Below are positions 2,604 through 60,345 of a stretch of DNA of 64,000 nucleotides, one piece after another. Numbering within the stretch: position 1 is the stretch's first letter; each line of letters begins with the position of its first letter. A model generated the notes under the pieces. The model saw only the letters and a program-made list of their open reading frames with translations. It was not told the origin of the DNA and ran no database searches. Source of the DNA: Candidatus Micrarchaeota archaeon (GTDB lineage Archaea; Micrarchaeota; Micrarchaeia; Norongarragalinales; JAPLXB01); contig JAPLXB010000022.1 in assembly GCA_026396285.1 (NCBI GenBank), positions 9,506 through 73,505 on the forward strand. Direction: 5' to 3'. Made by a program: the position numbers and the translations under genes.

Positions 2604-3122
2604 GAAATCACCGAAAAAACAGTGGATTCGCTTGTTTAAATGATTTCCGCGGCCGGCGGCTGCACGCGCAATGCTTGCGCTAACGGGTTTTGAAAAAATG
2701 GCTGCGCCGGGTTTTTTTCACGCAGCATTGGTCGTTGGTCCCTCGGGGTAGTGTCCACAAGCCAATGGCAAGTATCGTTACTGCATCAAGAAAATTGCCA
2801 TTGGATTGTGAAGAATGGCCTTTAGTGGCGGTTGGCTCAATGCTCGCTTTCGCTCGCATCTTCCACCTCCGCTCTATCAAACCCATCTGCTATGGGCGGC
2901 CTATGCTGTCTCGTTTTGGGGCCGGCTTCGTCCTTAGTTAGACCCCGACGGGATGCAGTATCAGTAGCTACCTCGGTCCTCATTTAAGGAAATCAGACTG
3001 GGACAGTTTCTTCACGACCGCTCCCGCCGAGTATGCCTTCAGGACTTATCCGATGGCGCGTGGCTACGCGGCATGCGTTGACACAACCGCATTACTAGAG
3101 GCGCCGACTCCCCGTTCCTCTC

Positions 3123-3267
3123 TTGAGCCTGGGCACTGTCCGCGAAACTGTGCAGTCCAGGATAGACTGCGGGAATTTTCACGCAACTGTTGACGACAAT
3201 TCACGGACTTTCGTCTCGTGCCGCCATCTGTTGCGCTTACCGAAAAATATGCGGGCCTTGCCCAGTG
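3123..3267 (-). other. Putative intron/insertion (about 145 nt) splitting the 23S sarcin-ricin loop
   Basis: In rRNA sense the gene reads GAGTAC[145 nt]GAGAGGAACGG. Removing the insert restores the universal AGUACGAGAGGAAC. Confidence 0.5.
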
Positions 3268-3449
3268 TACTCAGGGAACCTTACCCTCAGACAGCAAAGC
3301 ACTTCTAGGAGATGCCACCGAACTGTCTCGCGACGTTCTGAACCCAACTAACGTGCGTTTTTAACGGATGAACAACCCGACCCTTGGCGGCTCCTGCACC
3401 ACCAGGATAACGCGAGCCGATAGCGATGTACCAAACCGCGTGGTCGATT

Positions 3450-3644
3450 AGCCCTTTTCAAGGCAATTTTCCTCACAGTCGTGGTACGAGTTGGTTTCGT
3501 GACCATCGTTCGAATCAGTCGATCGCCGACTGAACGTAGAAATTTTTTGGGACTCCTGCGCCCGAATCGGCGCGACTTGAAACGAACAGCCTCGCACCAC
3601 GAGAAAATCACCATACCCTTCCATGAAAACACGGAAGAGGAAAA
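3450..3644 (-). other. Putative intron/insertion (about 195 nt) in 23S domain V
   Basis: In rRNA sense the gene reads CGAGAGTTCAT[195 nt]AATCGACCACGCGGTTTGGTACATCG. The conserved sequence is ...GAGUUCAUAUCGACGG..GUUUGGCACCUCG. The insert has no ORF. Confidence 0.5.
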
Positions 3645-6600
3645 ATGAACTCTCGCACGCGACGAGCCTGTTACCCCCGGGGTAGCTTGTCTGACAGAAC
3701 GGGCCCCCAGTAAAAGGGACACCGTTGTTCGCTAAGCCCGACTTTCGTCTCTGCGGACCATTTTGTTAGGACCACAGTCAATCCGGCATTTGTCTTTGAC
3801 CCTCTACAGCGCATTTCTGACGCGCTTGAGCCGAATATTAGGCGCCTTTGTTTTTTTATCGAAGGCGTACCGCCCCAGCCAAAACGCCCATCAGCAGCTG
3901 TCCATTTCTGTTAGAAACACAGTCAAAGAATAGCAGTGTCACACTTTCGCCTATCGCCGCCCCGGAAGGCGGCGCATAACGGCTCCTGCTTACGCTTTGA
4001 TCCCCCAACCGTATTCCAACTGCAAACTGCGTTTAAGCTCCACGGGGTCTTCGTTTCCCCCTAGAAGTCCTCGGCATGTTCACCGAGTAGTAGGTTCACC
4101 AGGTCCAAAGCTGGGACAGTGGGACGCTCGTTACGCCATTCATGCAAGCCGCCAATTAAGCGGCGAGGTATTACGCTACCTTAAGAGAGTCAGAGTTACT
4201 CCCGCTCTTTAACGGTCCTTCGCCCCCTTGAAAGGAGGTTTAAGATCCCGCCAGTGAGCAGGCGTCGGCACCCGTGCACAACGTTTCCATCTTGCGGGTA
4301 CCTGTGTTTTTGCTAAACAGTCGACGTCCCCTTGTTTACAGCCCTTTTTCGCGCTCGGGCGCTATCAACCAAATCATAAGCTTAAAAGCGGGCGCTTTCG
4401 CGTCCGCGGGTTAGCATTTCATGGGTTGTTCATTTCTTCACCGCGTGAAAAAGAGTCACTGCGACCTACCAATCCCCTTCGATGTGATCCGCGAACCCGA
4501 TTGCGTGGAACGCAATCAAGCCGCGTATAATCTCTGGAGAGAGGTAGGCATCCCTTCTTCCGAAGGTATGGGACTAACTTGCCGAATTCCCTAGCTTTGG
4601 TTCTCCTGCCACGCCTTGGCTTTTTCTGCCAGGGGCACCTTTCAGTAAACGTTTTCTTTTGGTGAAGCTTTTCTTTTCCAAAAGAAAAGGCTCAGTACTG
4701 GTTCTTGGTACGGTCTAATGGGATCCATTCCCTCACTCTTTTCAGGGGCTCGTGGAATCGGCCCAACCCTTTCGGGCTATTCCCTGCTTGGGCGCATGCT
4801 CCTCGTTACGAGACTTCTGCGCTCTGTTCAGGTTAACCACCCTCTCGGGTGGTGGGCTTGTCCGCAAGCGTCAAATGAAGGACTTGCGTTGCCGCGCGTA
4901 CCCACTAGGCACACGAATGTTAACGTGTTTCCCTTTCGGCTTCACGGTTACGTTTAGCCTTAGGACCGGCTTACTCTTGGTCGACTAGCGTTGCCAAGAA
5001 ACCCTTGCCCTTCCGGCGTCCAGGAAACGAGTAACAGGACGACGCTCCGCGTCGTCGTGTTAGTTCTCGCCTGGAATTGATGCTACTAGCACCAGGATCT
5101 TCGTCGCGACCCGGTCCACACGACCTCACGGCCGTGCTTCTACCCGGGCCCCGCGCCCTCCTAATCGGTCACGAGATTTCCTCTCGTGCGCTGGAGTATC
5201 GGTGATGCGCTTAGTCCCGATAGTTTACAGCGCCGCAGTCCTTGACGGGTCCGCTGTTACGCGTTGTTTAAAGGATGGCTGCTTCTGAGCCTACCTCCCC
5301 GCTGTCTGAGAACCATGACGCCTTGTCTTAACACTTAGCGCATGCTTTGGGACCTTAGCTCCAGTAGGGGTCGTTCCCCTCTCGGCGTACGCGCTTATCT
5401 CGTACAGCCCAACTCCCAGCGTCTTAAACGCTGACGGCTTCGGAGTTTGACAGGAAAGTGAGGATTTTACTCCCCGTTCTTCCCAGTCGGTTGCTCTACC
5501 CGTCAGCTGTCTCGGCTGAGGCTGTCCTGAGAGACACTTCGGAGGGAACCTGCTAATGCCGGCCTCGAATGAACTTTCATCCCTAGGCACGAGTCACCCC
5601 AGCGGCTGTCCAACCTTTTTGGTGAAGCTTTTTGCGTACAAAAAGGTTCTTAGACCAGCACGGGTTGCGGGCCTCCGCCAGCCTTACGGCCGGTTTCGCC
5701 CTGCTCGAGTCTAGATCGGTCCGGCTTCAGGTCTCAAACGAGTGACTCAAGGCGCTTTCGCACCCTCCCCCTCGCGCAACAAGTGCGTTGCGGGGACTCG
5801 CTTTCGCTTTGCATTGTGTGCTCGCCACTCGCATGAACTCCCTGGCCCTTGCTTCGAGAAGTATGATGCAACACTGGTTACTCCTTTCGGAGGTCATTCC
5901 TTTTGCGCCGCATCTTCTTGTAACCACCCAGTTTCAGATTCTTTGCACTGCCCTTTCGGGCTGCTTTTCAGTTTTCCATCACTGTACTGGCTGCGCTATC
6001 GGTCTCGGATTATATTTAGCGTTTGAAGTTAATGCTCCGGCTTTCCCACGCCCAATCCGGGGCGCGGTACTCTGGATCCCACCACACCCGGCGGTCGTTC
6101 GCTTACACGGCTTTCACGTTCTATGGCAAAGCTTTCCAGCTTTCTTCAGCTCCGGCTGCCGGCGTTAAAAGGTGGTCCCTGAACCCCACATCTGAACCGC
6201 CTTGCGGCGGGTCATTCGGTTTGCGCTATTCCGCTTTCGGTCGCCCTACTTGCGGAATCCTGGTTAGTTTCTTTTCCTCTCCCTACTGAGATATTTCAAT
6301 TCGGAAGGTCTTCTCTCCTCTCGGAGTTATTCGGGAACCCGCGGTTCAAAGCCTCCGTGCGGCTACCCGCGGCTTTTCGCAGCTTGGCGCGCCCTTCGTC
6401 GCTATCCGAGCCCAACCATCCACTGAGTGGCATAAACTAGTAGCACTACTCCTCGGGAACCAACGACCTATGCTGCTTCATGAAAACGAAAACGCGTGAC
6501 CGTAGTCAGCGTTTCCTCAGCGCTTGGTTCGACGACGCCCCGGGAAGGGGACTTACTCGCGAACTGCCATTCCTTTTCCAACGATTTTTACTCGCCGAAA

Positions 6601-6673: not shown

Positions 6674-6776
6674 TGGACTCGGTGGGATTTTCATCCCCGC
6701 AGAAATGCACGCAGGGTTTTTGAACCCACGACCTCCTGCTTGCAAAGCAGGCGCGCTGCCACTGCGCTACGAGCCC
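6674..6776 (-). tRNA. tRNA-Ala(UGC) with a roughly 31-nt intron in the T-loop (16S-23S spacer tRNA)
   Basis: The reverse complement reads GGGCTCGTAGCGCAGTGGCAGCGCGCCTGCTTTGCAAGCAGGAGGTCGTGGGTTCAA[AAACCCTGCGTGCATTTCTGCGGGGATGA]AAATCCCACCGAGTCCA. The acceptor stem has the G3:U70 Ala identity pair. The anticodon loop CUUUGCAAG gives UGC. The T-stem GUGGG/CCCAC encloses 38 nt instead of 7. CCA is not encoded. Confidence 0.8.
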
Positions 6777-6973
6777 AAGCCGTGCTTGGTTGCGGAAGTG
6801 ACTCCGCAACAGTCGCTATCCCGGCGAACGCGAACCTGCACCGGCGATGGCTTTAGCCATCGCCAAGGTTGTCCGGCGTCCGCCAAGGCGTTTTTCCAGG
6901 CTCCAAGAATTGCATTGACCAAAGGAAATTGACTTTCCTCAGATCTCTCCAAATTAGTTCTTCCAACCAATTG

Positions 6974-8583
<1,610 letters not shown>

Positions 8584-14149: not shown

Positions 14150-14782
14150 TCACGCCGCGCCGGCCATGCTCCTCACGACATAGCGGCCCCTTGACTCGAT
14201 GACGCCGAGGCGGCGCATGACCGCTCCCGCGCCTTTTTTCTTCGACGCATACTCCTTCCAAAAAACGCCGAAATCCCTTTCGCCCGCGGATTTTTTGAAC
14301 AACAGCACGTCCGTCGCCTGCCCCTCCACCGACGGCGTGAATTCGCTCAAGCCGAAGTCAATGAGCCACAACCGCCCCCGTGAATCAACCATGAAATTGG
14401 ATGTGGTGGAGTCGCCGTGGGCTATTCCGGCGCCGTGGAGCGCGGCCAGGCACGCGCCAGCTTCCTTCAGCAAGCGGTTGCGCCCAGGCGTCCGCAGCCT
14501 CGGCAGGGACTCCCTCAACAAACCGCCCGATATCTTGTTCAAGAAAAGTTCTTTCTTCACCAAATCAACGTGCTTTACGACAGGGCACTGGACTCCAGCC
14601 TGCTTGGCTGCCCGCAGGACGCTCGCTTCCTTCCTCGTCCTTTCCGAACGCAGCGCGACATCCAGCGCGTGCACGCGGTACCGCTTGCGGACGCGGCGCT
14701 TGCACACTGCCGGCTCGCCGAAAAACATGCATTCGATTATTTCGGCCTCCGCGCCCTTGCCAATCGTATTCATTCCAGCCAT
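14150..14782 (-). CDS. bud32: Kae1-associated serine/threonine kinase Bud32 (KEOPS subunit)
   Basis: 210 aa minimal kinase fold: GAEAEI...KRR..K.YR...LD, then the catalytic loop AHGDSTTSNFMV and LIDFGLS (DFG). Confidence 0.7.
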   Translation of the reverse strand: MAGMNTIGKGAEAEIIECMFFGEPAVCKRRVRKRYRVHALDVALRSERTRKEASVLRAAKQAGVQCPVVKHVDLVKKELFLNKISGGLLRESLPRLRTPGRNRLLKEAGACLAALHGAGIAHGDSTTSNFMVDSRGRLWLIDFGLSEFTPSVEGQATDVLLFKKSAGERDFGVFWKEYASKKKGAGAVMRRLGVIESRGRYVVRSMAGAA

Positions 14783-15466
14783 TCAATCGCCGCATTGCGC
14801 GCAAATTCCGTTCCCCGCCTCCTGCGCCTTCACGAAATCGCGGGCCGCCTTCATCGCTTTCTTTGCCAGCGCGCCGTCGCGCAAGAGTTTCGGCGGCGAA
14901 ACAGTCACGTCAACCAATGCAGACGGGGGTTTATTGGAAAGCCTGCCGCCGTCAACAACCAAGTCCGCCCTGCCCTCGAACAATTCCCGCGCCTCTTCAG
15001 GGTCATGAACCGGCGGAGCGCCCGACGGGTTCGCGCTCGTGGCCGTCACCGGCCTCCCGGCTTTTTTAACCAAATCAAGGGCAAAAGAGTGGCCGGGAAT
15101 CCTGAACGCCACGGTGCCGTTTTGGGAAATGTTTTCCGCCAGCTTCCCCTTTTTTCTCTTCACGACCAGCGTCAGCGGCCCGGGCATGAACAATTGAATC
15201 AGGTGCTGCGCCAGCGCGCTTATCTGGCAGTATTCGCGCGCCATTTCCCCGCCTGCAACGATTATCGACAACGCCTTTTCCTTTTCCCTCCCTTTTGCGC
15301 CAAAAACCTTTTCCACGGCCGCGGGATTGGTTGCGTCGGCCGCAATGCCATATGATGTTTCGGTGGGGAACACGACGATGCCGCCGCCGGCGATGACTGA
15401 CGCCGCTTTTTTCGCTCCGACCGCGCCTGCTTTGACTGACGCTGTTTTCAATTTTTTAACCATCAA
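14783..15466 (-). CDS. Threonylcarbamoyl-AMP synthase Sua5/YrdC/TsaC
   Basis: 227 aa. IVVFPTETSYGIAADA (YrdC signature), PLTLVVK, VAFRIPGH and VTATSANPSG motifs. It abuts bud32 with no gap. Confidence 0.7.
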   Translation of the reverse strand: MMVKKLKTASVKAGAVGAKKAASVIAGGGIVVFPTETSYGIAADATNPAAVEKVFGAKGREKEKALSIIVAGGEMAREYCQISALAQHLIQLFMPGPLTLVVKRKKGKLAENISQNGTVAFRIPGHSFALDLVKKAGRPVTATSANPSGAPPVHDPEEARELFEGRADLVVDGGRLSNKPPSALVDVTVSPPKLLRDGALAKKAMKAARDFVKAQEAGNGICAQCGD

Positions 15467-15470
15467 CAGT

Positions 15471-16466
15471 TCACCATTTTATTTCCGGTTCGTCCAACCG
15501 CATGCGCTGCCGCGGCTCCGCATCCCTCGGCACCGCCTTCGCCTTCAGCATCAATAGCCCGGTGAGTGCAATCATGCCCGCTTGATCCCCGGACAAGTCG
15601 TCTGGCGTGACGCAGAACCTCGCGCCCTGCTCCTCGCTCATCAGCCTCAGCATTTCCTGGAGCCTTCGGTTGCGGGCGTTGCCCCCGCACAAAAGGACTT
15701 CCGGGTTGCGCGTGTGGCACAGGCACCTTTCAGTGGCTTCTACGAGGGCGCTGAACGCGTATTCCTGGGCGGAATAGCATATGTCCGCCGCCGGCGCGGT
15801 TCCCTTCATTTTCTTTGTTTTCGTCAACAGGCCCGCGTACGCGACGCTCATTCCCTTCACCGTGTACGGCAGTGGCAAAAGCGCCTTCCCTTTCGCGGCC
15901 TCCTTCAACACGCCGACTGCGTCCGGCGGCTCCAGTTCCAGGCCGCGGCCGACTTGGTCCAGGAAGTTTCCGAGGCCTATGTCAAGGGTTTCGCCGAACA
16001 CGCGGTAGTGGCTGTGGCGGTTGTGGTCCTGTTTTTGGAGGGCGGCGATTTGGGTGTTGCCCCCGGAAACGTATACAACCAAAGGGTTTTTTGCCTTGCA
16101 CCACCATTTCCCGACTTCCACGTGCGCGACAGTATGGTTCACTGGAACAAGCGGTTTTCCGCAAAGGAGCGAAAGCGTCTTGGCGGCGACCCACCCGACG
16201 TGGAGGCAGTGGCCGATGCCCGGGCCCTGCGAGTAAGCGAACGCGTCAATGCCGTCCAGCGCCTTGCCGGCTTTCGAGAGAGCGGCTTCGGCGGCCTCGT
16301 TCCAGTGCTCTGCATGGAAATCCGCCAGTTTCCGCGGGATGTAGCCCTCTTTTGTGGACGGGTATTTGAAGCACTCGTTGGAGAGTACGGAAATTTTTCC
16401 CTTCTTTTCCGCAACCACCGCTGCGCCGAACGTGTGGGCAGTCGACTCGATTCCGAGGACGAGCAT
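15471..16466 (-). CDS. kae1: tRNA N6-adenosine threonylcarbamoyltransferase Kae1/TsaD
   Basis: 331 aa. MLVLGIESTAHTFGAAVV, HxxxH-type (HAEHWNEA) and SGG..N motifs of the Kae1/TsaD ASKHA family. Adjacent to sua5 and bud32. Confidence 0.85.
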   Translation of the reverse strand: MLVLGIESTAHTFGAAVVAEKKGKISVLSNECFKYPSTKEGYIPRKLADFHAEHWNEAAEAALSKAGKALDGIDAFAYSQGPGIGHCLHVGWVAAKTLSLLCGKPLVPVNHTVAHVEVGKWWCKAKNPLVVYVSGGNTQIAALQKQDHNRHSHYRVFGETLDIGLGNFLDQVGRGLELEPPDAVGVLKEAAKGKALLPLPYTVKGMSVAYAGLLTKTKKMKGTAPAADICYSAQEYAFSALVEATERCLCHTRNPEVLLCGGNARNRRLQEMLRLMSEEQGARFCVTPDDLSGDQAGMIALTGLLMLKAKAVPRDAEPRQRMRLDEPEIKW

Positions 16467-31471: not shown

Positions 31472-31594
31472 GGGCCCGTAGCTCAGCTTGGCTAGACCAA
31501 CTGCTTGGGCGATGCTTCGCATCGCCGGGGTAGGCGGGGCTACAGCAGCTGGCTTTTAACCAGAAGGTCGTGGGTTCAAATCCCGCCGGGCCCG
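31472..31594 (+). tRNA. tRNA-Lys(UUU) with a roughly 48-nt non-canonical intron in the D-arm
   Basis: Exon 1 is GGGCCCGUAGCUCAGCUUGGCUAGA (31472-31496). The intron is 31497-31544. Exon 2 is GCAGCUGGCUUUUAACCAGAAGGUCGUGGGUUCAAAUCCCGCCGGGCCCG. Spliced this gives a 75-nt cloverleaf with a 7-bp acceptor stem GGGCCCG/CGGGCCC, discriminator G, a D-stem GCUC/GAGC restored only after intron removal, and anticodon loop CUUUUAA. Confidence 0.65.
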
Positions 31595-31638
31595 CTAAAT
31601 GGATTGGGTGATGCTTGGGGCATTACCGGGTGTTTCGC

Positions 31639-33662: not shown

Positions 33663-35243
33663 ATGGCGAAAGTCCACTGGGCCGACCAGGCTGCGGAAAA
33701 ACTGCTGAAGAACGAGAGCAACATCGTCGCCAGCGGCACGTCCATCTCGGGCAAGCCCCACATCGGCAACGCCAACGACGTGATACGCGCGGGCATCATC
33801 GTCGAGGCAACCAAGCAGGCGGGCGGCCGGGCGGACCTCGTGTGGGTGTCGGACAACATGGACCCCATGCGCCGCGTGCCCGAAGGCCTGCCGAAAGAGT
33901 TCGAGGAATACATGGGGATGCCGTATTCGGACATACCCGACTTGGAAGGGTGCCACGCCAGTTTCGCGGAACACTATGAAAAAATCCTCTTGGACGAAGT
34001 GGGTGCGGCTGGCGCGTTCCCAATGGTTTTCAATGGCAGGGACATGTACCGCTCCGGAATGTACGACAACGCGATAAGGACCGCGATTGAGAAAAGAGCG
34101 GAAATAAAGGCGATCCTCGACCGTTTCAGGGAACACCCGCTGCCGGCAGACTGGTTCCCGTTCAACCCGATTTGCAGCAACTGCGGGCGCGTCGCCACGC
34201 CCAAAGTCACCGGCTACGCGGACGGCAAAATAAGCTATGCCTGCGCAGACGCGGTGGTTGGAAAGGGGGAGAACCCGGTCAAGGGCTGCGGCAACGAAGG
34301 CACCGCCGACTTCCACGAGGGGAAACTGGTGTGGCGCGTGGAGTGGCCCGCGCGGTGGAAGTTCCTTGAAGTCACGTGCGAGCCGTTCGGGAAAGAGCAC
34401 GCCGCCGCAGGCGGGTCATGGGACACCGGCAAACTGATTTCGGAACAAATTTACGGTTATCCTGCGCCGCTTCCGATAATTTACGAGCACTTCCAGGTCG
34501 GGGGGCAGAAAATGAGCAAGAGCATCGGGAACGTGGTGACGGTCGGCGACTGGCTGGAGTGCGCGCCGCCCGAAACCTTGAGGTATTACCTTTTCGCAGG
34601 GGACATCAACGTCGCCAAGGACATGGACATAACGACGGTAATGCCGCACGTGATGGAGGAATACCAGCGCGTGGAAAGGATTTACTTCGGCCGCGCCCGC
34701 GAAGGAGAGGCGCCGAAGGAAGAGGAGGCTGCCGGCAAGCTGAAGCGCATTTACGAACTCAGCCAGTTGAAGTGTGTTGCGCCGAAGGAGATGCCGGCGC
34801 AGGTTCCGTACGGGTTCGCGGCGCTCCTCGCGCAGGTGGCGCCGTCGCGGGAGAAGAAAATCGAGGTCTTAAAACGCACCGGCCACTTTGACGAAAAACT
34901 GGCGGACGCGATAATGGATTTCGTGGAAAGGGCGGGTTTCTGGGCGCGGAAATACAAGGCCGAGGGGTACGTGGTTGAATTCGCTGGCGCAGCCGAGGCT
35001 AAGAAGGCGCTGGGTGCGGAAAAAGCCGCTACGGTAAAGGCATTCGCGGCCGCCTATGAGAAAAAGGATTTGCGGGACGCGGTGAAGGCGTGCGCCGCGG
35101 CAACCGGCAAGTCGGACAAGGAGGTTTTCGCGGCGGTTTACCTCGCGCTGTTTGCAAAGGAAAAGGGGCCGCGCCTCGCTTCGCTCGAGGACGCGGTGGG
35201 GAAGGAAAAGCTGCTGAAAATACTGAAAGAGGCGGTTTCGTGA
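33663..35243 (+). CDS. lysK: Lysyl-tRNA synthetase, class I (archaeal type)
   Basis: 526 aa. HIGN (HIGH-class motif) near the N-terminus and GGQKMSKSIGN (KMSKS). The size and layout are typical of class I LysRS. Confidence 0.85.
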   Translation: MAKVHWADQAAEKLLKNESNIVASGTSISGKPHIGNANDVIRAGIIVEATKQAGGRADLVWVSDNMDPMRRVPEGLPKEFEEYMGMPYSDIPDLEGCHASFAEHYEKILLDEVGAAGAFPMVFNGRDMYRSGMYDNAIRTAIEKRAEIKAILDRFREHPLPADWFPFNPICSNCGRVATPKVTGYADGKISYACADAVVGKGENPVKGCGNEGTADFHEGKLVWRVEWPARWKFLEVTCEPFGKEHAAAGGSWDTGKLISEQIYGYPAPLPIIYEHFQVGGQKMSKSIGNVVTVGDWLECAPPETLRYYLFAGDINVAKDMDITTVMPHVMEEYQRVERIYFGRAREGEAPKEEEAAGKLKRIYELSQLKCVAPKEMPAQVPYGFAALLAQVAPSREKKIEVLKRTGHFDEKLADAIMDFVERAGFWARKYKAEGYVVEFAGAAEAKKALGAEKAATVKAFAAAYEKKDLRDAVKACAAATGKSDKEVFAAVYLALFAKEKGPRLASLEDAVGKEKLLKILKEAVS

Positions 35244-35752: not shown

Positions 35753-36904
35753 TCACGGCTGCGTCCATTCTATTTCGTAGTACTCGTACTTGCTGCCCGG
35801 AAGCTCCACTCTCTTCACCCGGTAGTGAGTGATGGAAGTTTCGCGGTCGCAGATGGAGAGTATCAGTTCAAGGCCGACTTCCTTCGCGCGGCGCAGCGCC
35901 TGTGCCAGTTCCTGCCCCCCGATTTCCTCCTCTTCGCTTAGGGCCAGCATCACGAACTTCGGCTTGTCTTCCCTCGGGTTTTCTATCGCCCCGTGCTTCC
36001 GGTGGTACAACAGGAAGTCTAGTTCGGCGGCAGTCTCCTTTTTTTCGCCGGGAATCGCGAGGATGAACGTTTTTTTCACGCCGTGCGCCACGCGGATGGC
36101 GCGTGCCCATTCGCTGATTAGCATCTTGCTGTCGCGGGGGAACACGTGGATGACGTGCTTGGAGTGCATCCACTCCTCGTTCTCGAGCGTCGGTGACGCG
36201 CCCGGGAAGTAGAGGCGGAAGTGGGTGCCGAACTTGAAACCGGTTTTGAGCACGAAGCCGCGGAGGCGCCAGTCCTCGTAAACGTCGTACAGCGCGTTGA
36301 AGTCCTGCCGCCTTTGCGTCGCTTCCTTCACGAGCCGGGCTTCCTTGATGTTCAACACGTATCCGCCGTGGCGCATGAGGAAAAGCGTCTCGTACGCGTC
36401 GAGTTTGTTGAATTTCCCGTGCTTCCGCGCCTTGTACGTCCCGTACTGGCCGAACCAGTCGCGCTCATAAAGCGCCAGGCCTTTTTCCTCGTCGTCAATG
36501 ACGCTCATCAAGTCGTCGTACAAAAACAGGCCTCTGGCTTTCACGCGCGGGCAGTCAAAGTGCTTGGAAGGGTATTTCACCACCGGGCTGCGGCCGTAGT
36601 TGCCTTCGGCCTCGTCCATGGGCCTTGCCACGAGCCCGCGGTCGCGCCAGTCGCGGTAGCAGAAATAGCGCGCCATGAACTTTTTTCCCTGGAGTTTTGA
36701 CGCTAGGCGGTTGAAGGAAACCTGCTTGCCGTTGTGCGTGCAGGAGGCGTTCCTCACGTCCATCAAGTACAATGCTTCCACCGGCATTAGCTCCAGGACG
36801 TTTTTCCCGGTTTTTTTCCCGAAAAAGCCGCGCTCAAGCGCCTGCTCGGAAGTTATTTCCTTTGCCAGCACGCGTTCTCCGTCAAATTCAATAGTGACTG
36901 CCAT
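35753..36904 (-). CDS. endA: tRNA-splicing endonuclease EndA, long single-chain multi-unit form (about 383 aa)
   Basis: The true start MAVTIEFDG is at 36904. The 647-aa ORF-track version has a low-complexity spurious N-extension. Unit 1 is degenerate (YFCYRDWRDRGLVA, no catalytic triad). Unit 2 is catalytic: ALYDVYEDWRLRGFVLKTGFKFGTHFRLY...HSKHVIHVF...AHGVKK, carrying the Tyr/His/Lys triad. A further roughly 90-aa C-terminal segment resembles the last strand-helix-strand of an EndA C-domain (FVMLAL...AQALRRAKEVGLELILSI). Confidence 0.75.
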   Translation of the reverse strand: MAVTIEFDGERVLAKEITSEQALERGFFGKKTGKNVLELMPVEALYLMDVRNASCTHNGKQVSFNRLASKLQGKKFMARYFCYRDWRDRGLVARPMDEAEGNYGRSPVVKYPSKHFDCPRVKARGLFLYDDLMSVIDDEEKGLALYERDWFGQYGTYKARKHGKFNKLDAYETLFLMRHGGYVLNIKEARLVKEATQRRQDFNALYDVYEDWRLRGFVLKTGFKFGTHFRLYFPGASPTLENEEWMHSKHVIHVFPRDSKMLISEWARAIRVAHGVKKTFILAIPGEKKETAAELDFLLYHRKHGAIENPREDKPKFVMLALSEEEEIGGQELAQALRRAKEVGLELILSICDRETSITHYRVKRVELPGSKYEYYEIEWTQP

Positions 36905-37085
36905 TGGGCGTCTCCTCCGCGGGCACCAAAACCCCTTGATTGTCTGCTGCCCGGCGATTGAGTCGGCGAGCCTCTGCGGCTCTTTTAATATTCGCGCTGC
37001 CTTGATTAAAAAAGCGACTGCTTTGCAGCGGAGCCGGCGGGCCTGCCCGTCCTCCGGTCTGCCGCGTGCGGCGGGGGTAGCGGGA

Positions 37086-38363
37086 ATGGGTTTGCTTGAC
37101 GGCCTGGCGGGTTTCTGGAAAAAGCCCGGACCCAAGCCGGCTGCCGGGCGCAGGGAAATGCGCCTCGGCGAACTCGAGTCCTTCCTGAAAACGGAAAGGG
37201 CGGGAAAGCTCGCGCCTTTTGCGGAAAAATCGCGGGACGCGTGCGGAAAAATACTGGACGAACTCGCCGACGCCGCGCGGGCCGCGGAATCCCTCAGGGA
37301 CGCGGAGCCGACCGGCAAATGGAGCCGCATCGGCGAACAAATGAGGGAAAACTTCATCACACGCATAGTCCCGACCCTTGGAATCGCGCGCCACGGCGAA
37401 GGCTTTGAAGCCGCCGCCGAGTTCCACTCCAAGGCGTTCGCGGCAATCTCGGCGTGCACGAAAATATTGTCGGACAACCGGTACCTCCTGCACTTCTTTC
37501 CCAAATCCATGGGCGGTTTCGCGAAGAGGATGAACGCGGCGTCGGCGCTCGTTGAGGAACTCGGCAAAATCGTGCAAGGGGGCCGGCAGGCGGCCGCGGG
37601 GTTTGACGCGGCGGTTGGCGCGCTGAGGGAACGCGAGAAAACGCTCTCGGAGAAGGCTGTTGCCGAGAAGGAGATGGGTGAGTTGGAGGCGTTCAAAACC
37701 GGTTTGAAAAAGAGGATTGCGGAAGAGACTGCGGCCGCGTTGCCCGGGGGAAGGGGGCTTGGCGGCGCGGTTGCCGGAGGAGGCGCTTACGGGGCTGTTG
37801 AAAAAATCGCCGGCATTGAAAAGCGCGTTGGGGCGCTGAAGGCGGAGTTGGCGGTGATGCTGAACCCCCTGGATCGGCTGTTTAGGAAGTTGGAAAAAAT
37901 TTCCCTTGAGAAGCGCGTGGCTGAAAAAGCCGCTTTTTACGCGGCCGGCCCCGCCGACGCAGTGGTTGAAGGCGGAGAGGAAGGGTTGGAGGAATTGAAG
38001 CGCCTTGCAGAAGAAGTCGGCAAGGAACTCGCCGCCGGCCGCTTGGAGACGGACGGGGAGAAGAGGAAGAAAGCAGTGGCTGCTCTGGAACGGATTGACT
38101 TTGGAAAAGTTTCCGCGGCAGTGAACGAACTGGGTTCGCTTGAGAAGGAAAAGGCCGCGGCCGCAGCAGTGCTTGAAAGGGAAAAGGCCGCAGAGCGCGA
38201 GAGGCGGGACTTGGAGGAGGAGCTTGCGGCGGTGGAAATGAAGAAGGTGGCGTTGGAGGAAAAAATACGCGGCGCGGCGAAAAAACTCGCCGAATCCGTG
38301 GCGGGCATTGAAAAAAGCGCTTCCGCGGCCGCTGGCGTTGAAATAAAAATAGCCGCTGAATAA
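37086..38363 (+). CDS. Ala/Glu/Lys-rich coiled-coil protein (cytoplasmic), first gene of the filament supercluster
   Basis: 425 aa from the ATG at 37086. The longer ORF-track version overlaps endA on the other strand. Heptad-like EELAAxxAALE repeats run throughout. No TM. It ends 25 nt before the first class III signal-peptide gene. Confidence 0.4.
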   Translation: MGLLDGLAGFWKKPGPKPAAGRREMRLGELESFLKTERAGKLAPFAEKSRDACGKILDELADAARAAESLRDAEPTGKWSRIGEQMRENFITRIVPTLGIARHGEGFEAAAEFHSKAFAAISACTKILSDNRYLLHFFPKSMGGFAKRMNAASALVEELGKIVQGGRQAAAGFDAAVGALREREKTLSEKAVAEKEMGELEAFKTGLKKRIAEETAAALPGGRGLGGAVAGGGAYGAVEKIAGIEKRVGALKAELAVMLNPLDRLFRKLEKISLEKRVAEKAAFYAAGPADAVVEGGEEGLEELKRLAEEVGKELAAGRLETDGEKRKKAVAALERIDFGKVSAAVNELGSLEKEKAAAAAVLEREKAAERERRDLEEELAAVEMKKVALEEKIRGAAKKLAESVAGIEKSASAAAGVEIKIAAE

Positions 38364-44845: not shown

Positions 44846-45559
44846 TTGATTGAAATGGCTGCTGACGAAAACATTGAGACAGTCATTGACCGCTTGGTCG
44901 ATTTCGTGAAATTAAAAGGCAGGGTCAGCGCGGTCGAGGCCGGGCGGGCGCTTGGCATGAGTTCCGGCCAAGTCGAGGGCATTGCCCGGCTGCTTGAGGA
45001 CAACGGGCTCGTACAAGTGCATTACACCCTTATTGGCACGGAACTCGCCGCGGTTGGAAGGGATTTGAAGAAAAAAGAGGGGGAAAAAAGCCGTGCAAAC
45101 GAGCCGGGCGCCGTGGAGGCGTACAAGGACTTCGAATCCTTCGTCAAGGAAAGCGAGGACATTTTCGAGTTCCTCAAGGAAGAGGTCTTGAAAAAAATGA
45201 CTGCCGCCGAGTCCCTGCTGGACCGGCTGGAAAAAGAGAAACTGGACGAAAACGACAAGACCGCGGTCAGGAAGGAACTCCGCCGGGTGACAAGCACCCT
45301 CAACAACTTCGAACCCACTCTCCAAAAAATCGTGCACGGGGAAAAGGAACTTAGGAAGCGCATAAGGGAAATCAGCAAGAGGACGGCCGCTGCCGAGAGA
45401 AGTAAACCCGGGATTTGGGACGGCATCAGGGACTTTGTTGCAAAATTTAAGCGCCGGAAGAAGGGGAAAATTCCCGCTCCAAGCGCTTCTCCGAAGTCGG
45501 AGAAGCGCAAAAAGCTTTTGGAACGACTCAGCCTTTCCCGCAAAAGGGTGCTGAAATGA
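44846..45559 (+). CDS. Cytoplasmic wHTH-like plus coiled-coil protein, translationally coupled to the filament ATPase
   Basis: 237 aa. The N-terminal roughly 70 aa (VIDRLVDFVKLKGRVSAVEAGRALGMSSGQVEGIARLLEDNGLVQV) looks like a winged helix. A charged coiled coil follows. Its stop overlaps the ATPase start (ATGA). Confidence 0.45.
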   Translation: MIEMAADENIETVIDRLVDFVKLKGRVSAVEAGRALGMSSGQVEGIARLLEDNGLVQVHYTLIGTELAAVGRDLKKKEGEKSRANEPGAVEAYKDFESFVKESEDIFEFLKEEVLKKMTAAESLLDRLEKEKLDENDKTAVRKELRRVTSTLNNFEPTLQKIVHGEKELRKRIREISKRTAAAERSKPGIWDGIRDFVAKFKRRKKGKIPAPSASPKSEKRKKLLERLSLSRKRVLK

Positions 45560-47058
45560 AAGTGCTTGCAAAATACGTCATCCAAAGCGAGAACGTGCCG
45601 GCAGAGGTTACCATCGCCCAGCGCGAAGAAGAGTACATAAACACCTACGAACTCAAGCACGCGAAGGTTATGGAGGCAACGAACGTCGTCCTTAATTTCC
45701 TGAAGGAGAAAATCATTGAAGGCGTCGACATCAGGATTTCCGAAATAATGGATCCGCGCGAGGCCGAGCGCGTAAAGGAAAAAATAATCCCAACGGCCCA
45801 CGAACTCGTCAGGAAGGAACTGCCGGGCGTGAACAGGGACGAGGAAGACATCCTAGTAGGGCGGCTTGTCCAGGAAATGCTCGGACTAGGCGAAATGGAA
45901 CTCCTCCTCGCAGACGACGAGCTTGAGGAGATAGTCGTCAATTCTTCAAAAGAGCCAATCTACGTTTATCACAAGAAGTTCGGCTGGCTCAAGACCAACG
46001 TATCAGTCACGTCAGAGGAGCAGATTCACAACTACGCTTCCATCATCGGGAGAAAAGTCGGGAAACAAATCACTAACCTCAACCCGCTCATGGACGCGCG
46101 GCTCCTCAGCGGAAGCAGGGTCAATGCCACGCTGTTCCCCATCTCCTCAAAGGGCAACGGTTTCACGATAAGAAAATTTGCGAAAGACCCGTGGACCATA
46201 ATCAACTTCATCAACCCCAAGATAAACACCCTCAACGCAGAAACCGCCGCCGTAATCTGGCAGGCGGTGCAGTACGAAATGAACATAATCGTTGGCGGCG
46301 GCACCGCTTCTGGAAAAACCTCTTTCCTAAACGCCATACTTGCATTCTGCCCGCCCAACCAGAGGATTGTCTCAATAGAGGACACGCGCGAACTCGTGCT
46401 CCCCGACTTCCTCCACTGGACCCCGCTCGTCACCAGGGAACCGAACCCGGAGGGCAAGGGCGGGGTGGAAATGCTCGACTTGATGATAAACTCGCTCCGC
46501 ATGCGGCCCGACCGGATAGTGCTGGGCGAAATCAGGCGGCAGCGCGACGCAGAAGTGTTGTTCGAGGCAATGCACACGGGCCACGCCGTATGCGGGACCC
46601 TTCACGCGGATGACGCGATGCAGGTCAAGTCGCGGCTCACGAGCCCGCCCATAAACCTGCCGGAGGAAATGCTGGGCGCCCTTCAACTCACCGCAGTCCA
46701 GTACCGCCAGAGGAGGACCGGCATCAGGAGGACGTATGAAATCGCCGAATTCATGCCCGAGGGGAAGACGATGGGCATAAACACCGTTTACAAGTGGGAC
46801 CCGAAGAGCGACAGGCTGGAAAAGGTCGGGGAGGGCCTGCGCCTCATCAGCGAGCTGTCAATGCACACTGGCATGAGCATGAAGGAGATGCGCGAGGATC
46901 TGGATGACAAGAAGGACGTCCTCAACTACATGAGCGAACACCAGATTGCCTCGGTCAACGAGGTTGGAAAGGTCGTCGCGTCCTATTACCGCGACGGGGG
47001 ACGCGTGACAGAAGGAGTCCGCAAGAAAACGCCGCCCCAGAAACTCTTCGGCCGGTGA
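45556..47058 (+). CDS. Type IV filament/secretion ATPase, FlaI/TadA/GspE family (module 1)
   Basis: 500 aa. Walker A GGGTASGKTS. An Asp box. Walker B VLGEIR-type. A His box (MHTGHAV). The N-terminal domain resembles archaeal FlaI/PilB. Confidence 0.85.
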   Translation: MKVLAKYVIQSENVPAEVTIAQREEEYINTYELKHAKVMEATNVVLNFLKEKIIEGVDIRISEIMDPREAERVKEKIIPTAHELVRKELPGVNRDEEDILVGRLVQEMLGLGEMELLLADDELEEIVVNSSKEPIYVYHKKFGWLKTNVSVTSEEQIHNYASIIGRKVGKQITNLNPLMDARLLSGSRVNATLFPISSKGNGFTIRKFAKDPWTIINFINPKINTLNAETAAVIWQAVQYEMNIIVGGGTASGKTSFLNAILAFCPPNQRIVSIEDTRELVLPDFLHWTPLVTREPNPEGKGGVEMLDLMINSLRMRPDRIVLGEIRRQRDAEVLFEAMHTGHAVCGTLHADDAMQVKSRLTSPPINLPEEMLGALQLTAVQYRQRRTGIRRTYEIAEFMPEGKTMGINTVYKWDPKSDRLEKVGEGLRLISELSMHTGMSMKEMREDLDDKKDVLNYMSEHQIASVNEVGKVVASYYRDGGRVTEGVRKKTPPQKLFGR

Positions 47059-47061
47059 AGC

Positions 47062-47937
47062 ATGATGAAGCCAGCGGTTCCATTCAGCCTCATTCCCCCC
47101 AGGGCGTTGTTCGCCGCGGGAAAAAAATACGCGGCGCTCGGCATCCAATTGACACGCGCCTTTTCCGAACTGAAGACTAACCTCGCCCAGGCGGAAATGG
47201 AAATTGCGGCAGCGGAGTACGCCGCGGCTTCCCTTGTTTCAGCGGCGCTCAACACCGCATTCATCCTCATCCTCATACTGTTCTTCGGCTACCTCGCGTC
47301 GGCAAACGTCCTGACGGCGGCACTGGCCCTTGCACTGGTCACCGGCGCAAGCTCGTTCCTGACCGCCGTATACTACCCGAAAATAATCGCCCTCCGCCGC
47401 AAAAGAAAACTGGAGGACAACCTTGTTCCGGCGGTGCGCCAGCTCGTTATAGAACTCAAGTCGGGGGTGCCGTTGTTCGAGGCCATGACGAGCGTTTGCG
47501 ACGACTACGGCGAAGTGTCGGAAGAGTTCAAAAAAATAGTCAAGAAAATAAACGCCGGCGAGGCCGAAATAGACGTGCTCGGCGACGCGAGCCGCCGACT
47601 GCCGTCAGTGCAGTTCCAGAAAGTCATCTGGCAGATATCAAACGCCCTGAAAGTCGGGTCGGACGTGAGCAACGCGCTTGAAGCAATACTCGAGGACTTG
47701 ACCGCCGAGAAAATAAACGAAATCAAGAGATACTCCCAGGAGCTTTCGCCATGGACAATGGTTTACATGATGACTGCAGTCATACTCCCCTCGCTCGGAA
47801 TCACTCTCGGGATAGTCATACTGTCGTTCCTGAGCGTCTCGGTTCCCAGGATGATATTCGCGGTGGCGATCGTCTTCCTCGTCATCTTCCAGTTGTTTTT
47901 CATGAACTTCCTTGGAACGCGACGGCCCGCGATATGA
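47062..47937 (+). CDS. TadB/TadC(FlaJ)-like polytopic membrane platform protein, single T2SS-F domain
   Basis: 291 aa. A cytoplasmic helical domain between TM1 and TM2 (VPAVRQLVIELKSGVPLFEAM...) is typical of the GspF/TadC fold. Confidence 0.65.
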   Translation: MMKPAVPFSLIPPRALFAAGKKYAALGIQLTRAFSELKTNLAQAEMEIAAAEYAAASLVSAALNTAFILILILFFGYLASANVLTAALALALVTGASSFLTAVYYPKIIALRRKRKLEDNLVPAVRQLVIELKSGVPLFEAMTSVCDDYGEVSEEFKKIVKKINAGEAEIDVLGDASRRLPSVQFQKVIWQISNALKVGSDVSNALEAILEDLTAEKINEIKRYSQELSPWTMVYMMTAVILPSLGITLGIVILSFLSVSVPRMIFAVAIVFLVIFQLFFMNFLGTRRPAI

Positions 47938-48990
47938 GTGATTGAATTGTTTGAAAAAATATACTACCAAACTGCCGAAATATTCCCGCCTTCCGCGGTG
48001 GAGAAAACCAGGGAGCTCCTGCAGCAGGGCGGAATAGAAAAAATAAGCCCGAAGGTGTATCTTGGACTCGGCACATACCTTTCAACCGCGCTCGCCCTCA
48101 TTGCCTTCTTCCTGGCCCCCATTTTCGTTCCCGGCCAGCATCCTGCCGCATACGTCGGAATAGCCGTGGCCGTCCAACTCCTCGCCGGCATACTCTTTTA
48201 CCTGAACCTGACAATGACCGCGGAAAACAGGGCTGAAAAAATAGAGGCAATGCTTCCCGAAATGCTCCAGATAATTTCCGCAAACATACGGGCGGGAATG
48301 ACCCTGGAAAACGCGGTCTGGTCCTCAGCAAGGGAAGAATTCGGGCCGCTGAGGGACGAGATAAAGAAGGTTTCGGCAGACGCGTACCGCGGAATACCCA
48401 TACAAGATGGAATGCTGAACATGAGCAAGAGAATACGGTCAACCCTCGCCGAAAGGGCGATAAAACTCATAGTGGAAGGGATTGCAAAAGGGGGGGAAAT
48501 GACCCGCCTACTTGACCGCGTGGCATGGGACCTCAAAAGCGCCCAGACGCTGCGCAAGGAAATAACGACGGCCACCCTGACTTACTCGCTTTTCATTGTT
48601 TTCGCCGCAGTCATCGTAAGCCCCCTCCTGTTCTCCGTCTCCACCTACTATTCGGAAATGAATGAAAAAATAGCGGAAAAAACCACTGCCTCGCCAGAAC
48701 TCAACATGTCCAAATCAGTGAGGGGCGGCCCGATGACCTATTCCGCCATCCCCATCATGGGCTTCGGGCAACGGCCAAAAGACATGATAACCTCGAACGA
48801 AATAAAGCTCTTCGCGTACGCGGCAATAATAATCACAACCGCTTTCAGCGCCCTCCTGCTCGGAGTGATTCGCTACGGGAAGCCCAGCAAGGGCCTGAAA
48901 TTCCTCGTCTTGTTCGTCGTCCTCGGGCTCGCCGTGTTTTCGCTCGCCCACGATTTCCTGACAGCCGCCTTCTCAAGCATCATGCGATAA
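47938..48990 (+). CDS. TadB/TadC(FlaJ)-like membrane platform protein, second single-domain paralogue
   Basis: 350 aa. A GTG start lies immediately after the TGA of the previous gene. Same T2SS-F-like layout (LPEMLQIISANIRAGMTLENAV...). Confidence 0.65.
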   Translation: MIELFEKIYYQTAEIFPPSAVEKTRELLQQGGIEKISPKVYLGLGTYLSTALALIAFFLAPIFVPGQHPAAYVGIAVAVQLLAGILFYLNLTMTAENRAEKIEAMLPEMLQIISANIRAGMTLENAVWSSAREEFGPLRDEIKKVSADAYRGIPIQDGMLNMSKRIRSTLAERAIKLIVEGIAKGGEMTRLLDRVAWDLKSAQTLRKEITTATLTYSLFIVFAAVIVSPLLFSVSTYYSEMNEKIAEKTTASPELNMSKSVRGGPMTYSAIPIMGFGQRPKDMITSNEIKLFAYAAIIITTAFSALLLGVIRYGKPSKGLKFLVLFVVLGLAVFSLAHDFLTAAFSSIMR

Positions 48991-49063: not shown

Positions 49064-49861
49064 ATGGCAAAGAAAAAGCAAACGCCACTGCACAGGGCCC
49101 GCGCAAGCCGCGCCGCGCCGGCAGAACACGAACGCCGCGAAAAGACTCCCGCCGAAGCCGCTCCTGCAGGGGAGTCGCCGAAGGTCAAGTCGGGGATTCC
49201 GGGTTTGGACAGGCTCATTGGCGGCGGCTTCGAGAGGGAAAGCGTGGTGCTCGTCACCGGCGACGCGGGAAGCGGGAAAAGCACATTGGCCATGCAGTTC
49301 CTGTGCAACGGCGCCAGCCAATACGACGAGCCGGGCATACTCATAACGTTCGAGGAACGCCGCGAGGACATAATCAAGCACATGAAGTCCTACGGCTGGG
49401 ACATCGAGGCATTGGAAAAGGAGAAGAAAATAAAGATACTTGAATACCCCCCGCACGAAGTGGAGCGCTTCATTTCAGAAGGCGAAATAATCCGCGACCT
49501 CATATCAGACCTCAAGGCGAAACGCATGGTGATAGACTCCATGACTTCCTTCGCGCTCGTTTTCGACAACGAGTACAAGATGAGGCTAGGGGTGCTGAAG
49601 GCGATTGATTCCCTGAAAAAATGGGGGTGCACTGCGCTCCTGATTTCCGAAGGAAGCGTGACCGAACAAGGCGAGGTCAGGGACCGTTTCGGCATAGAAT
49701 ACCTCGTCGACGGCACGATATACCTGTATAACAAGCGCGTGCGCGACTACCGCCAGAAACTCGTTGAAATCGTGGAACTCAAGGGCGTCAAACACGACAA
49801 CGCAATCCACCAGCTCGTCTTCGGCAGGAAGGGAATAAGCGTAGAGGAAAGATCCGCATGA
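49064..49861 (+). CDS. KaiC/FlaH-like RecA-superfamily ATPase
   Basis: 265 aa. GIPGLDRLIGGGFERESVVLVTGDAGSGKSTLAMQFL (KaiC-type Walker A) and Walker B MVIDSMT. A Lys/Arg/Ala-rich N-terminal tail. A TATA-like element sits 23 nt upstream of the ATG. Confidence 0.7.
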   Translation: MAKKKQTPLHRARASRAAPAEHERREKTPAEAAPAGESPKVKSGIPGLDRLIGGGFERESVVLVTGDAGSGKSTLAMQFLCNGASQYDEPGILITFEERREDIIKHMKSYGWDIEALEKEKKIKILEYPPHEVERFISEGEIIRDLISDLKAKRMVIDSMTSFALVFDNEYKMRLGVLKAIDSLKKWGCTALLISEGSVTEQGEVRDRFGIEYLVDGTIYLYNKRVRDYRQKLVEIVELKGVKHDNAIHQLVFGRKGISVEERSA

Positions 49862-57723: not shown

Positions 57724-58661
57724 TGGAGGTAGCCATATTTCTCTTCATCATCCCGAAAACCCTTGAAGCCCCCCTGGCGAGGAGGCTCCGCGGACTCGGC
57801 GGAAAACTCGGCTCCCTCGTCCCCGGCCTTGGATACGACCTGAGGGAACTCGGAGAAGCGGACGCGGGAAAATACGTTGCCCGCGCCCTCCTGAACTCGG
57901 TCCTCTGGGGAATCCTCCTCACGCTCCTCATATCTTTCTTCCTATTCACCACAGGAAGGCTCAAGCCCGAAATATTGGCGCAAACATTCTCAAACAATGC
58001 GGCGCTGTCATACGCCGCCGCCGGAATCCTCCCGGCAGTAGGCAGCGGAATATTCGTCACCGCCCTCCTCCTCGCGTTCCTCCTATACTACCCGCACATA
58101 CTTGCCAGGAAACTCGCGGAAACAGTGGACAAGGACTTGATATTCGCGCTCAAGGACCTCCAACTCCAGATCGGCTCAGGAGTCAGCCTGTTCAACGCCA
58201 TGGTCAACGTCTCCAAAGCCGGCTACGGCAACGTGTCCAAGCAGTTTGACTCGGTCGTAAAGGACATTTCCGCAGGCGAGGCAGAGGACGCGGCGCTTGA
58301 AAAAATGGCTGCACACACCGAATCCGAGTTCATGAAAAGGACGGTGTGGCAGATGATCACCGCCCTCCGCGGCGGCGCAAGCCTGGAAGGCGCTCTCTCC
58401 AGCATAATATCAGTGCTGAAAAGGGACCAGGCGTCCAGGATAAGAACATTCATCCATGAACTCAACCTCTGGGCCCTTGTCTACATGATAGTGGCAGTGG
58501 CGGTGCCGGGCCTCGGCTCAACGGTCCTTATCGTAATATCCGCCTTCGGAGGAATAGTGGTCACCGAAATGACTTACGTCTTCGCCCTAGTCGCCTGCTT
58601 CATCGCCGAAATAGTCATAATCGGTTTCATAAAATCAAGGAGGCCAATCGTCCACCTGTAA
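57720..58661 (+). CDS. TadB/TadC(FlaJ)-like membrane platform protein (module 2, first)
   Basis: 313 aa. The start overlaps the ATPase stop. T2SS-F-like cytoplasmic domain (LIFALKDLQLQIGSGVSLFNAM...). Confidence 0.65.
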   Translation: MMEVAIFLFIIPKTLEAPLARRLRGLGGKLGSLVPGLGYDLRELGEADAGKYVARALLNSVLWGILLTLLISFFLFTTGRLKPEILAQTFSNNAALSYAAAGILPAVGSGIFVTALLLAFLLYYPHILARKLAETVDKDLIFALKDLQLQIGSGVSLFNAMVNVSKAGYGNVSKQFDSVVKDISAGEAEDAALEKMAAHTESEFMKRTVWQMITALRGGASLEGALSSIISVLKRDQASRIRTFIHELNLWALVYMIVAVAVPGLGSTVLIVISAFGGIVVTEMTYVFALVACFIAEIVIIGFIKSRRPIVHL

Positions 58662-58718
58662 AAGCCGGCTTGAAAGAAATTGCGCTGCAAAAACTTCGCA
58701 AAAAAAAGGTCTTCAACA

Positions 58719-59808: not shown

Positions 59809-60345
59809 ATGGCTTCAAGACGCGGGCAGGCGGCAGTGGAATACCTGATTATCCTTGCAGTCGTCATCATCATCGCGCTCGTCGTCGTAGGCGTGCTGGG
59901 CGGCTTCCCGTCGTTGACGAGGGGCGTGAACGAGAAGGAAAGCGCCTTGTACTGGCAGGGCTCTGAAATCGCGATACAAAAATACTTCTTCGCTTCAGCC
60001 GTTCCCCTCACCACAACCAACAGCAGCATAAGTTTAAGAAATAACAAAAATTTTGATATCCGCTTTAGTCTTCCATACGGAATTCAAATGACAAAAGGCG
60101 ACGGTACTTTTACCGCAGTGCCTCTGAATTGCAAAACCGTTTCAGACTGCAGCGGAAATACAACGGTTACAATGTCCCCAGGGGATTCCAAAAACTTAGT
60201 CATAGCCTACCCTAACTGGGTTACTGATTTCTGCAACAGCAAGGGCGACACGTTCAGCCGCAAAGTCACATTCAACTATACAGACACTGAAGGCAATTAT
60301 TACATCTTCGTGGGCACTGTTCCGCTCGTGACGACGTGCCAGTGA
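59809..60345 (+). CDS. Class III signal peptide pilin-like protein (178 aa)
   Basis: MASRRGQAAVEYLIILAVVIIIALVVVGVL (R-G|Q, E at +5, Tyr at +6). The C-terminal half of the gene is conspicuously AT-rich. Confidence 0.6.
   Translation: MASRRGQAAVEYLIILAVVIIIALVVVGVLGGFPSLTRGVNEKESALYWQGSEIAIQKYFFASAVPLTTTNSSISLRNNKNFDIRFSLPYGIQMTKGDGTFTAVPLNCKTVSDCSGNTTVTMSPGDSKNLVIAYPNWVTDFCNSKGDTFSRKVTFNYTDTEGNYYIFVGTVPLVTTCQ

Follow-up and report, generated by a model that had tools for sequence, protein, structure and literature searches.

A tRNA-Ala(UGC) gene with a predicted BHB intron at position 59/60 in the rRNA operon spacer of a Micrarchaeota-like archaeon

In the 16S-23S spacer of an archaeal rRNA operon we found a tRNA-Ala gene, encoded like both rRNA genes on the minus strand, whose T stem (GUGGG at 6729-6725, CCCAC at 6686-6682) encloses 38 nt instead of the usual 7. 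This arrangement had been pointed out in an initial annotation of the DNA and was confirmed on the minus-strand sequence. It raises the question whether the surplus nucleotides are an intron in the T-loop and, if so, which enzyme would remove them. We analysed the locus within a 64,000-nt stretch of DNA, here called the window, together with related loci from other genomes and metagenomes. The positions given below count from the first base of the window, and the features are collected in Table 1. The evidence makes it very probable that 6674-6776 is a functional tRNA-Ala(UGC) gene, interrupted at position 59/60 by a bulge-helix-bulge (BHB) intron that is spliced out with the help of an ε2 endonuclease.

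Table 1. Features of the interrupted tRNA-Ala gene, its rRNA operon and further genes of the window.
Feature	Position	Strand	Basis
Pre-tRNA-Ala(UGC) gene, 103 nt, no encoded CCA	6674-6776	minus	sequence; covariance model R2
5' exon, tRNA positions 1-59, 58 nt, ends UUCAAA	6719-6776	minus	same register as intronless L031-L033
Predicted 31-nt BHB intron at 59/60, AACCCUGCGUGCAUUUCUGCGGGGAUGAAAA	6688-6718	minus	cloverleaf on removal, BHB geometry, alignment gap
3' exon: U60, T-stem 3' strand CCCAC, acceptor 3' strand CGAGUCC, discriminator A73	6674-6687	minus	sequence; R2
Central BHB helix, 5' strand UUCA, tRNA 54-57	6721-6724	minus	pairs with UGAA 6690-6693; 88.6% paired in 22 relatives
Central BHB helix, 3' strand UGAA, intron nt 26-29, followed by bulge AA|U	6690-6693	minus	BHB geometry
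Inner intron hairpin CCCUGC(G)/(U)GCGGGG	6695-6716	minus	folding; all four tested pairs change both sides in relatives
16S rRNA, upstream in same operon	6972-8582	minus	Rfam RF01959, 1372 bits
23S rRNA, downstream in same operon	2803-6451	minus	Rfam RF02540, 2233 bits
23S processing stem, 5' arm, strict BHB, predicted cut after 6478	6456-6487	minus	inverted repeat I1
23S processing stem, 3' arm, predicted cut after 2716	2711-2742	minus	inverted repeat I1
ε2-type (three-unit) tRNA splicing endonuclease EndA, 384 aa from Met at 36907	35753-36907	minus	Pfam, PDB match
tRNA-Lys(UUU), 48-nt intron in D arm at 22/23 (about 31497-31544)	31472-31595	plus	resolved by hand and folding

Gene model of the spacer tRNA-Ala

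Read from 6776 to 6674 on the minus strand, the gene runs GGGCUCG UA GCGC AGUGGCA GCGC G CCUGC UUUGCAA GCAGG AGGUC GUGGG, then the 38 nt, then CCCAC CGAGUCC A. The acceptor stem is fully paired (7/7) and includes G3:U70, and the anticodon is UGC. When 6688-6718 was deleted, ARAGORN returned a perfect cloverleaf of 73 nt with 21/21 stem pairs, G3:U70 and the T-loop UUCAAAU, while without the intron option it had found nothing in a 251-nt excerpt before the 31 nt were taken out. The spliced form has U8, A14, G18 G19, U33, G53 U54 U55 C56, A58, C61 and A73 all in place, so that the description of the remaining gene as a textbook tRNA-Ala was borne out. A pattern that combined the anticodon and variable loops, a T arm expanded by 12-42 nt and the 3' acceptor end matched the window once and was never matched in 100 shuffles. 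After splicing, the predicted exon junction reads ...GGGUUCAAA|UCCCACCGAGUCCA, followed by CCA. The mature 3' end would be ...CCCACCGAGUCCA-CCA in the spliced model and ...CCCUGCGUGCAUU in a contiguous model of the gene, which is considered further below.

BHB motif and intron structure

Archaeal hBHBh' motifs consist of 3-nt bulges separated by 4 bp and are cut two bases into each bulge. In the tRNA-Ala precursor the T stem makes up an outer helix of 5 bp, the central helix has 4/4 bp between bulges of 3 + 3 nt, and the inner helix comprises 6-7 bp. One bulge is formed by A58 A59 and the first intron base (AA|A), the other by the last two intron bases and U60 (AA|U), and the UGAA of the central helix (6693-6690) occupies the bases four to seven before the end of the insertion. 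Owing to runs of A, junctions 56/57 to 59/60 would all yield the same mature RNA; we assigned the intron to 59/60 because the BHB geometry selects that junction among the equivalent ones. The initial annotation was right about the length of the insertion, roughly 31 nt, but its approximate placement at 6690-6720 has to be shifted to 6688-6718. The CCCUGC/GCGGGG hairpin it had noted inside the insertion is present at 6716-6711 / 6700-6695 and can be extended to 7 bp. A single A·A mismatch opens the inner helix, and the 5' bulge can also be read as 4 nt. The motif is a near-strict hBHBh' (3-4-3 with one A·A mismatch), and what is unusual about it is its position, not a relaxed shape. In the T arm, the BHB fold is no more than 0.4 kcal/mol less stable than the optimal fold of that arm; the minimum-free-energy fold of the whole precursor differs from cloverleaf plus BHB. 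Two other identities of the insertion were rejected, namely a C/D-box guide (no D box, and 31 nt are too short) and a group I intron (far too short, no Rfam match).

A candidate endonuclease encoded in the window

Located 29 kb from the tRNA-Ala gene, the window encodes a tRNA splicing endonuclease. Pfam placed tRNA_int_endo (two stretches) and tRNA_int_endo_N in the ORF 35753-37696, and the protein matched PDB entry 4fz2_A from Candidatus Micrarchaeum acidiphilum ARMAN-2 in one stretch over residues 8-387 of 395 (E 3.6e-130, 53% identity). The triad Y233, H248, K279 is conserved, and K159 in the motif GTYKARKH corresponds to K161 of the ARMAN-2 specificity loop (ASL). In ARMAN-2 this lysine is essential for cleavage, and its loop confers broad specificity (PMC3488258). 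The ARMAN-2 enzyme cuts pre-tRNA-Cys with a 59/60 intron in vitro, and a 59/60 intron is also present in pre-tRNA-Pro of ARMAN-2 (PMC3239211). Efficient removal of non-canonical introns has been described only for (αβ)2 and ε2 enzymes, and α4 and α'2 enzymes handle such introns poorly (PMC5829648). By its sequence the window EndA is of the ε2 type, and it may be a homodimer of broad substrate specificity fit for non-canonical introns. The claim that an endonuclease of relaxed specificity would be needed is supported, an ε2 EndA being encoded in the window, with the qualification that the motif itself is almost strict and only its position unusual. The ORF extends 263 codons upstream of the EndA start (36908-37696, minus strand); this extension is rich in Ala, Ser, Pro and Arg, gave no match in the PDB search and is probably not translated.

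From the motif and the enzyme we infer how cleavage and ligation would proceed in the host, and in which order. The T stem would serve as outer helix in the precursor, and U54-A57 of the T-loop would make up the 4-bp central helix together with the UGAA close to the intron's 3' end. The splice sites would then lie in the two 3-nt bulges (A58 A59|A and A A|U60), with the remaining intron folded into a hairpin, and the ε2-type endonuclease would cut both bulges. The exons would be joined by an RtcB-type ligase presumably encoded outside the window; when about 47 ORFs of the window were compared with Pfam, neither an RtcB domain nor an RNA ligase was detected. The tRNA would be cut out of the rRNA transcript by RNase P and RNase Z and would receive its CCA.

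Relatives with and without the intron

A search of metagenomes with the tRNA sequence expected after splicing retrieved three contigs (L031-L033) with an intronless spacer tRNA-Ala. These genes differ from the spliced form of the window at 2 positions, the alignment gap comprises exactly the 31 nt, and they scored 74.4 bits with the Rfam tRNA model versus 39.2 bits for the contiguous call in the window. Together with the spliced cloverleaf, these orthologues uphold the proposal that the intron sits in the T-loop and not at 37/38.

One degenerate-pattern scan of species-representative genomes yielded 29 loci with an insertion at the same site. By their labels they belong to Micrarchaeota, Aenigmatarchaeota, Woesearchaeota, Nanoarchaeota, unclassified archaea, Thermoplasmata and, in one case, Campylobacteraceae, the last contig being probably mis-binned. 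All 29 insertions are 17-42 nt long, and the 30 sequences including the window contain 29 distinct introns. At 19/20 tested loci the gene is found within the 16S-23S spacer or directly before the 23S gene. The intron sequences of the relatives are unrelated and their structure is conserved. Over the 30 sequences the central helix showed 109/120 pairs versus 49±5 in shuffled introns, and the inner helix, read in a fixed canonical register, 119 pairs versus 64±6. In an alignment of 22 relatives, 95.6% of the cells of cloverleaf plus BHB were paired and 17 pairs changed on both sides; none of 500 shuffles did as well, and when the partners were slid by 1-3 columns, 35-48% remained paired. Pairing within this alignment amounted to 88.6% in the central helix and 80.7% in the inner helix, where 4/4 tested pairs changed on both sides. 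Across the insertion, the acceptor stem was 100% paired with 3 covarying pairs, and G3:U70 was invariant.

The closest relative is the Micrarchaeota locus L029, to which the intron-containing pre-tRNA of the window is 86% identical over 109 nt. The introns of the two are probably orthologous, because the last 11 intron bases together with U60 (GGGGAUGAAAAU) are identical in both.

Conservation of the position is plain among these loci, and it fits a single ancient intron and repeated insertion at a favoured site alike. One might go further and regard the 59/60 intron of the spacer tRNA-Ala as a selected feature instead of an incidental insertion, because site, gene and operon position are the same in four DPANN phyla and one Thermoplasmata clade (according to their labels) without conservation of sequence. 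We consider this doubtful at present. If the intron is selected, a possible role would be to link spacer tRNA maturation, and the parting of the 16S and 23S halves of the transcript, to the endonuclease that also cuts the rRNA stems; another would be to guard the gene's 3' part against integrating elements. In the literature searched we found no description of a site-59/60 interruption of the spacer tRNA-Ala across genomes labelled DPANN or Thermoplasmata.

Several of the related loci showed additional features. In L016, L017, L022, L024 and L025 the 5' half of the spacer tRNA-Ala is non-contiguous and the 5' strand of the acceptor stem is absent at the expected distance, which suggests a second intron near the D arm besides the one at 59/60. 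Rfam matches to group I introns were found in or beside the rRNA genes of the Nanoarchaeota-labelled L011 (4807-5101, 70 bits) and the Woesearchaeota-labelled L018 (4089-4357, 53 bits), but not in the window. The spacer tRNA-Ala of L015 (labelled Thermoplasmatota) is the same as that of L023 (labelled Aenigmatarchaeota), intron included, and L002 (JALWPZ010000216.1), a 3.7-kb contig binned as Campylobacteraceae, has the same exons with a slightly different 17-nt intron. The bin labels of these three loci cannot all be correct.

Alternative explanations

Three other readings of the locus were weighed, and even taken together they are improbable. The one that survives best is that the gene is a tRNA-Ala pseudogene, in which the insertion is never removed, and that another copy supplies tRNA-Ala(UGC). 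This reading draws on the fact that, for this genome, the evidence is DNA sequence and comes from the 64,000-nt window, so that a second, intact tRNA-Ala(UGC) gene may exist elsewhere. Against it, 29 other species-level genomes have an interruption at this site, with intact exons and covarying BHB helices, a matching endonuclease is encoded nearby, and a dead gene would not retain 21/21 stem pairs and a BHB. We therefore regard a pseudogene as very improbable.

Even less credit can be given to a contiguous, intronless tRNA-Ala of 73 nt at 6704-6776, for which the downstream CCCAC-CGAGUCCA would be a mere coincidence. This is the gene called by ARAGORN in default mode and by Rfam (RF00005, 39.2 bits, above the gathering score of 29). 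It was also preferred by R1, a covariance model made from spliced relatives, which aligned 6706-6776 contiguously with 64.1 bits but, being trained without insertions, is no test of the intron. All three favour the contiguous form because such models cannot open a 31-nt insertion cheaply. R1 was replaced by R2, a covariance model from unspliced relatives with the BHB helices included, whose training left out the window and its closest relative L029. R2 aligned the window end to end from 6776 to 6674 with 98.8 bits (E 1e-22) and the A·A as the only non-standard pair. The contiguous model, in contrast, contains two non-pairs each in the acceptor and T stems, has G3-C70 and is thereby without the alanine identity pair, and ends in the discriminator U. 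The blank ARAGORN result on the 251-nt excerpt also speaks against it, as does the covariation of the acceptor stem across the insertion in the 22 relatives, whereas the spliced alternative closes every stem and the intronless orthologues fit at 74.4 bits. The initial annotation had named failure of covariance scoring for the spliced form, or a different, canonical gene model, as outcomes that would speak against the intron. The spliced gene model was matched well by R2; a canonical model was formally returned by ARAGORN and Rfam, but it is clearly the worse of the two.

That the mature tRNA keeps the 31 nt, in an enlarged T-loop or an additional arm, is hardly credible either, for although they form a stable hairpin, their retention would disrupt the T-loop, which in known tRNAs contacts the D-loop, the conserved trait is the BHB cleavage geometry and not a common arm (17-42 nt of unrelated sequence), and close relatives lack the insertion.

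Comparison with known systems

The spliced reading of the tRNA-Ala gene thus describes a known kind of intron, and our findings are a modest extension of it to another isoacceptor, a location in the rRNA operon and a divergent lineage. Micrarchaeota that combine 59/60 introns with an ε2 enzyme were described in 2011 (PMC3239211), and 59/60 is listed among the known non-canonical tRNA intron sites (review, PMC4090602). The ARMAN-2 introns (PMC3239211) share with the window the position, the phylum-level lineage as judged by rRNA and EndA similarity, and an encoded ε2 enzyme; they are likewise short, with the T stem as outer helix of the BHB. Differences are found in the isoacceptor, here Ala(UGC), and in the location of the gene inside the rRNA operon spacer. 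Compared with ARMAN-2 tRNA-Cys, the motif is a near-strict hBHBh' instead of a relaxed hBH and the intron has 31 nt instead of 13 nt; the host of the window is divergent, its EndA being 53% identical.

Introns of Thermoproteales and other Crenarchaeota (PMC4090602) belong to the same class of mechanism, in which a BHB is recognised anywhere in the tRNA, and they favour the same set of sites. The crenarchaeal enzyme, however, is an (αβ)2 EndA with a CSL loop, whereas the window encodes an ε2 enzyme with an ASL loop in another lineage. Canonical 37/38 introns have the same geometry, a 4-bp helix between 3-nt bulges cut 2 nt into each, but use the anticodon stem as outer helix where the window uses the T stem. 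BHBs in archaeal pre-rRNA stems present the same substrate motif, and a strict example flanks the 23S of the window. Those motifs serve to excise rRNA, whereas the one described here lies within the spacer tRNA and its flanks need religation.

Current understanding of archaeal tRNA splicing is left unchanged by these results. They show that a tRNA of the rRNA operon is able to carry a 59/60 intron, and they add a divergent case to the reported link between ε2 endonucleases and disrupted tRNA genes. A practical consequence concerns annotation. Default tRNA finders mis-annotate the tRNA-Ala gene as a low-scoring, mis-paired model without the alanine identity pair, and the same applied to every relative checked, insertion-bearing genes receiving 29-49 bits from Rfam or, often, truncated matches, versus 74 bits for intronless ones. 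The tRNA complements of DPANN genomes are likely under-called, because default tools mis-call tRNA-Ala genes of this type and ARAGORN misses the tRNA-Lys(UUU) gene described below.

The rRNA operon and its processing stem

The 23S gene of the same operon is enclosed by a processing stem of 32 nt with 81% complementarity. Its hBHBh' consists of an outer helix of 4 bp, the central helix UCAU/GUGA, the bulges GA|A and AA|A and an inner helix of 7 bp, laid out as guuu UCAU [GA|A] gcagcau ... augcugc GUGA [AA|A] aaac. Since this stem BHB and the tRNA intron share the operon, at least two endonuclease substrates would be present on one primary transcript. The 16S processing stem yielded weak BHB candidates alone, none of them as clear as that of the 23S. 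A permissive BHB scan over the whole rRNA operon carried no signal, with 992 matches versus 811-971 in shuffles.

Both rRNA genes are long, the 23S with 3649 nt versus 2987 model positions and the 16S with 1611 nt versus 1478. Compared with relatives, the extra 23S sequence is contained in about five blocks (about 4640-4695, 4343-4529, 3449-3639, 3122-3267 and 2937-3033). No strict BHB was found at the borders of these blocks and no group I intron match in Rfam; they may be expansion segments or relaxed-BHB introns.

The host and other genes of the window

Among the nearest Micrarchaeota loci compared, the 16S gene showed about 77% identity, closest to Micrarchaeota. This similarity and the EndA match place the host, an uncultivated archaeon of tiny size, in a divergent Micrarchaeota-like DPANN lineage.

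The window contains a second disrupted tRNA gene, tRNA-Lys(UUU), which went undetected by ARAGORN and was picked up by Rfam only in part, with 29.1 bits at 31536-31594. After splicing it folds into a good cloverleaf, and its BHB looks relaxed on the 3' side. Brute-force deletion combined with ARAGORN was uninformative for this region, with over a thousand variants accepted. The two disrupted tRNA genes of the window agree with the heavy disruption of tRNA genes reported for ARMAN-2. Just downstream of tRNA-Lys(UUU) lie a gene for a class I lysyl-tRNA synthetase (33663-35243) and the EndA gene.

At 903-1282 on the minus strand we observed a match to archaeal RNase P RNA (RF00373, 64.7 bits, E 1e-15), below the gathering score of 84 and hence absent from the default Rfam output. 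Two parallel gene sets on the plus strand (45556-48990 and 55411-59735) each encode, besides two T2SSF membrane proteins, a secretion ATPase of type II/IV (T2SSE), and look like duplicated archaeal pilus or archaellum-type machinery. Genes for a KaiC-like ATPase (49064-49861) and a class III signal peptide protein (59809-60345) are located near these sets, which are surrounded by many ORFs without a Pfam match. On the minus strand at 14150-16466, genes for a Bud32-like kinase, Sua5 and Kae1/TsaD, which are proteins of tRNA t6A modification, are adjacent to each other.
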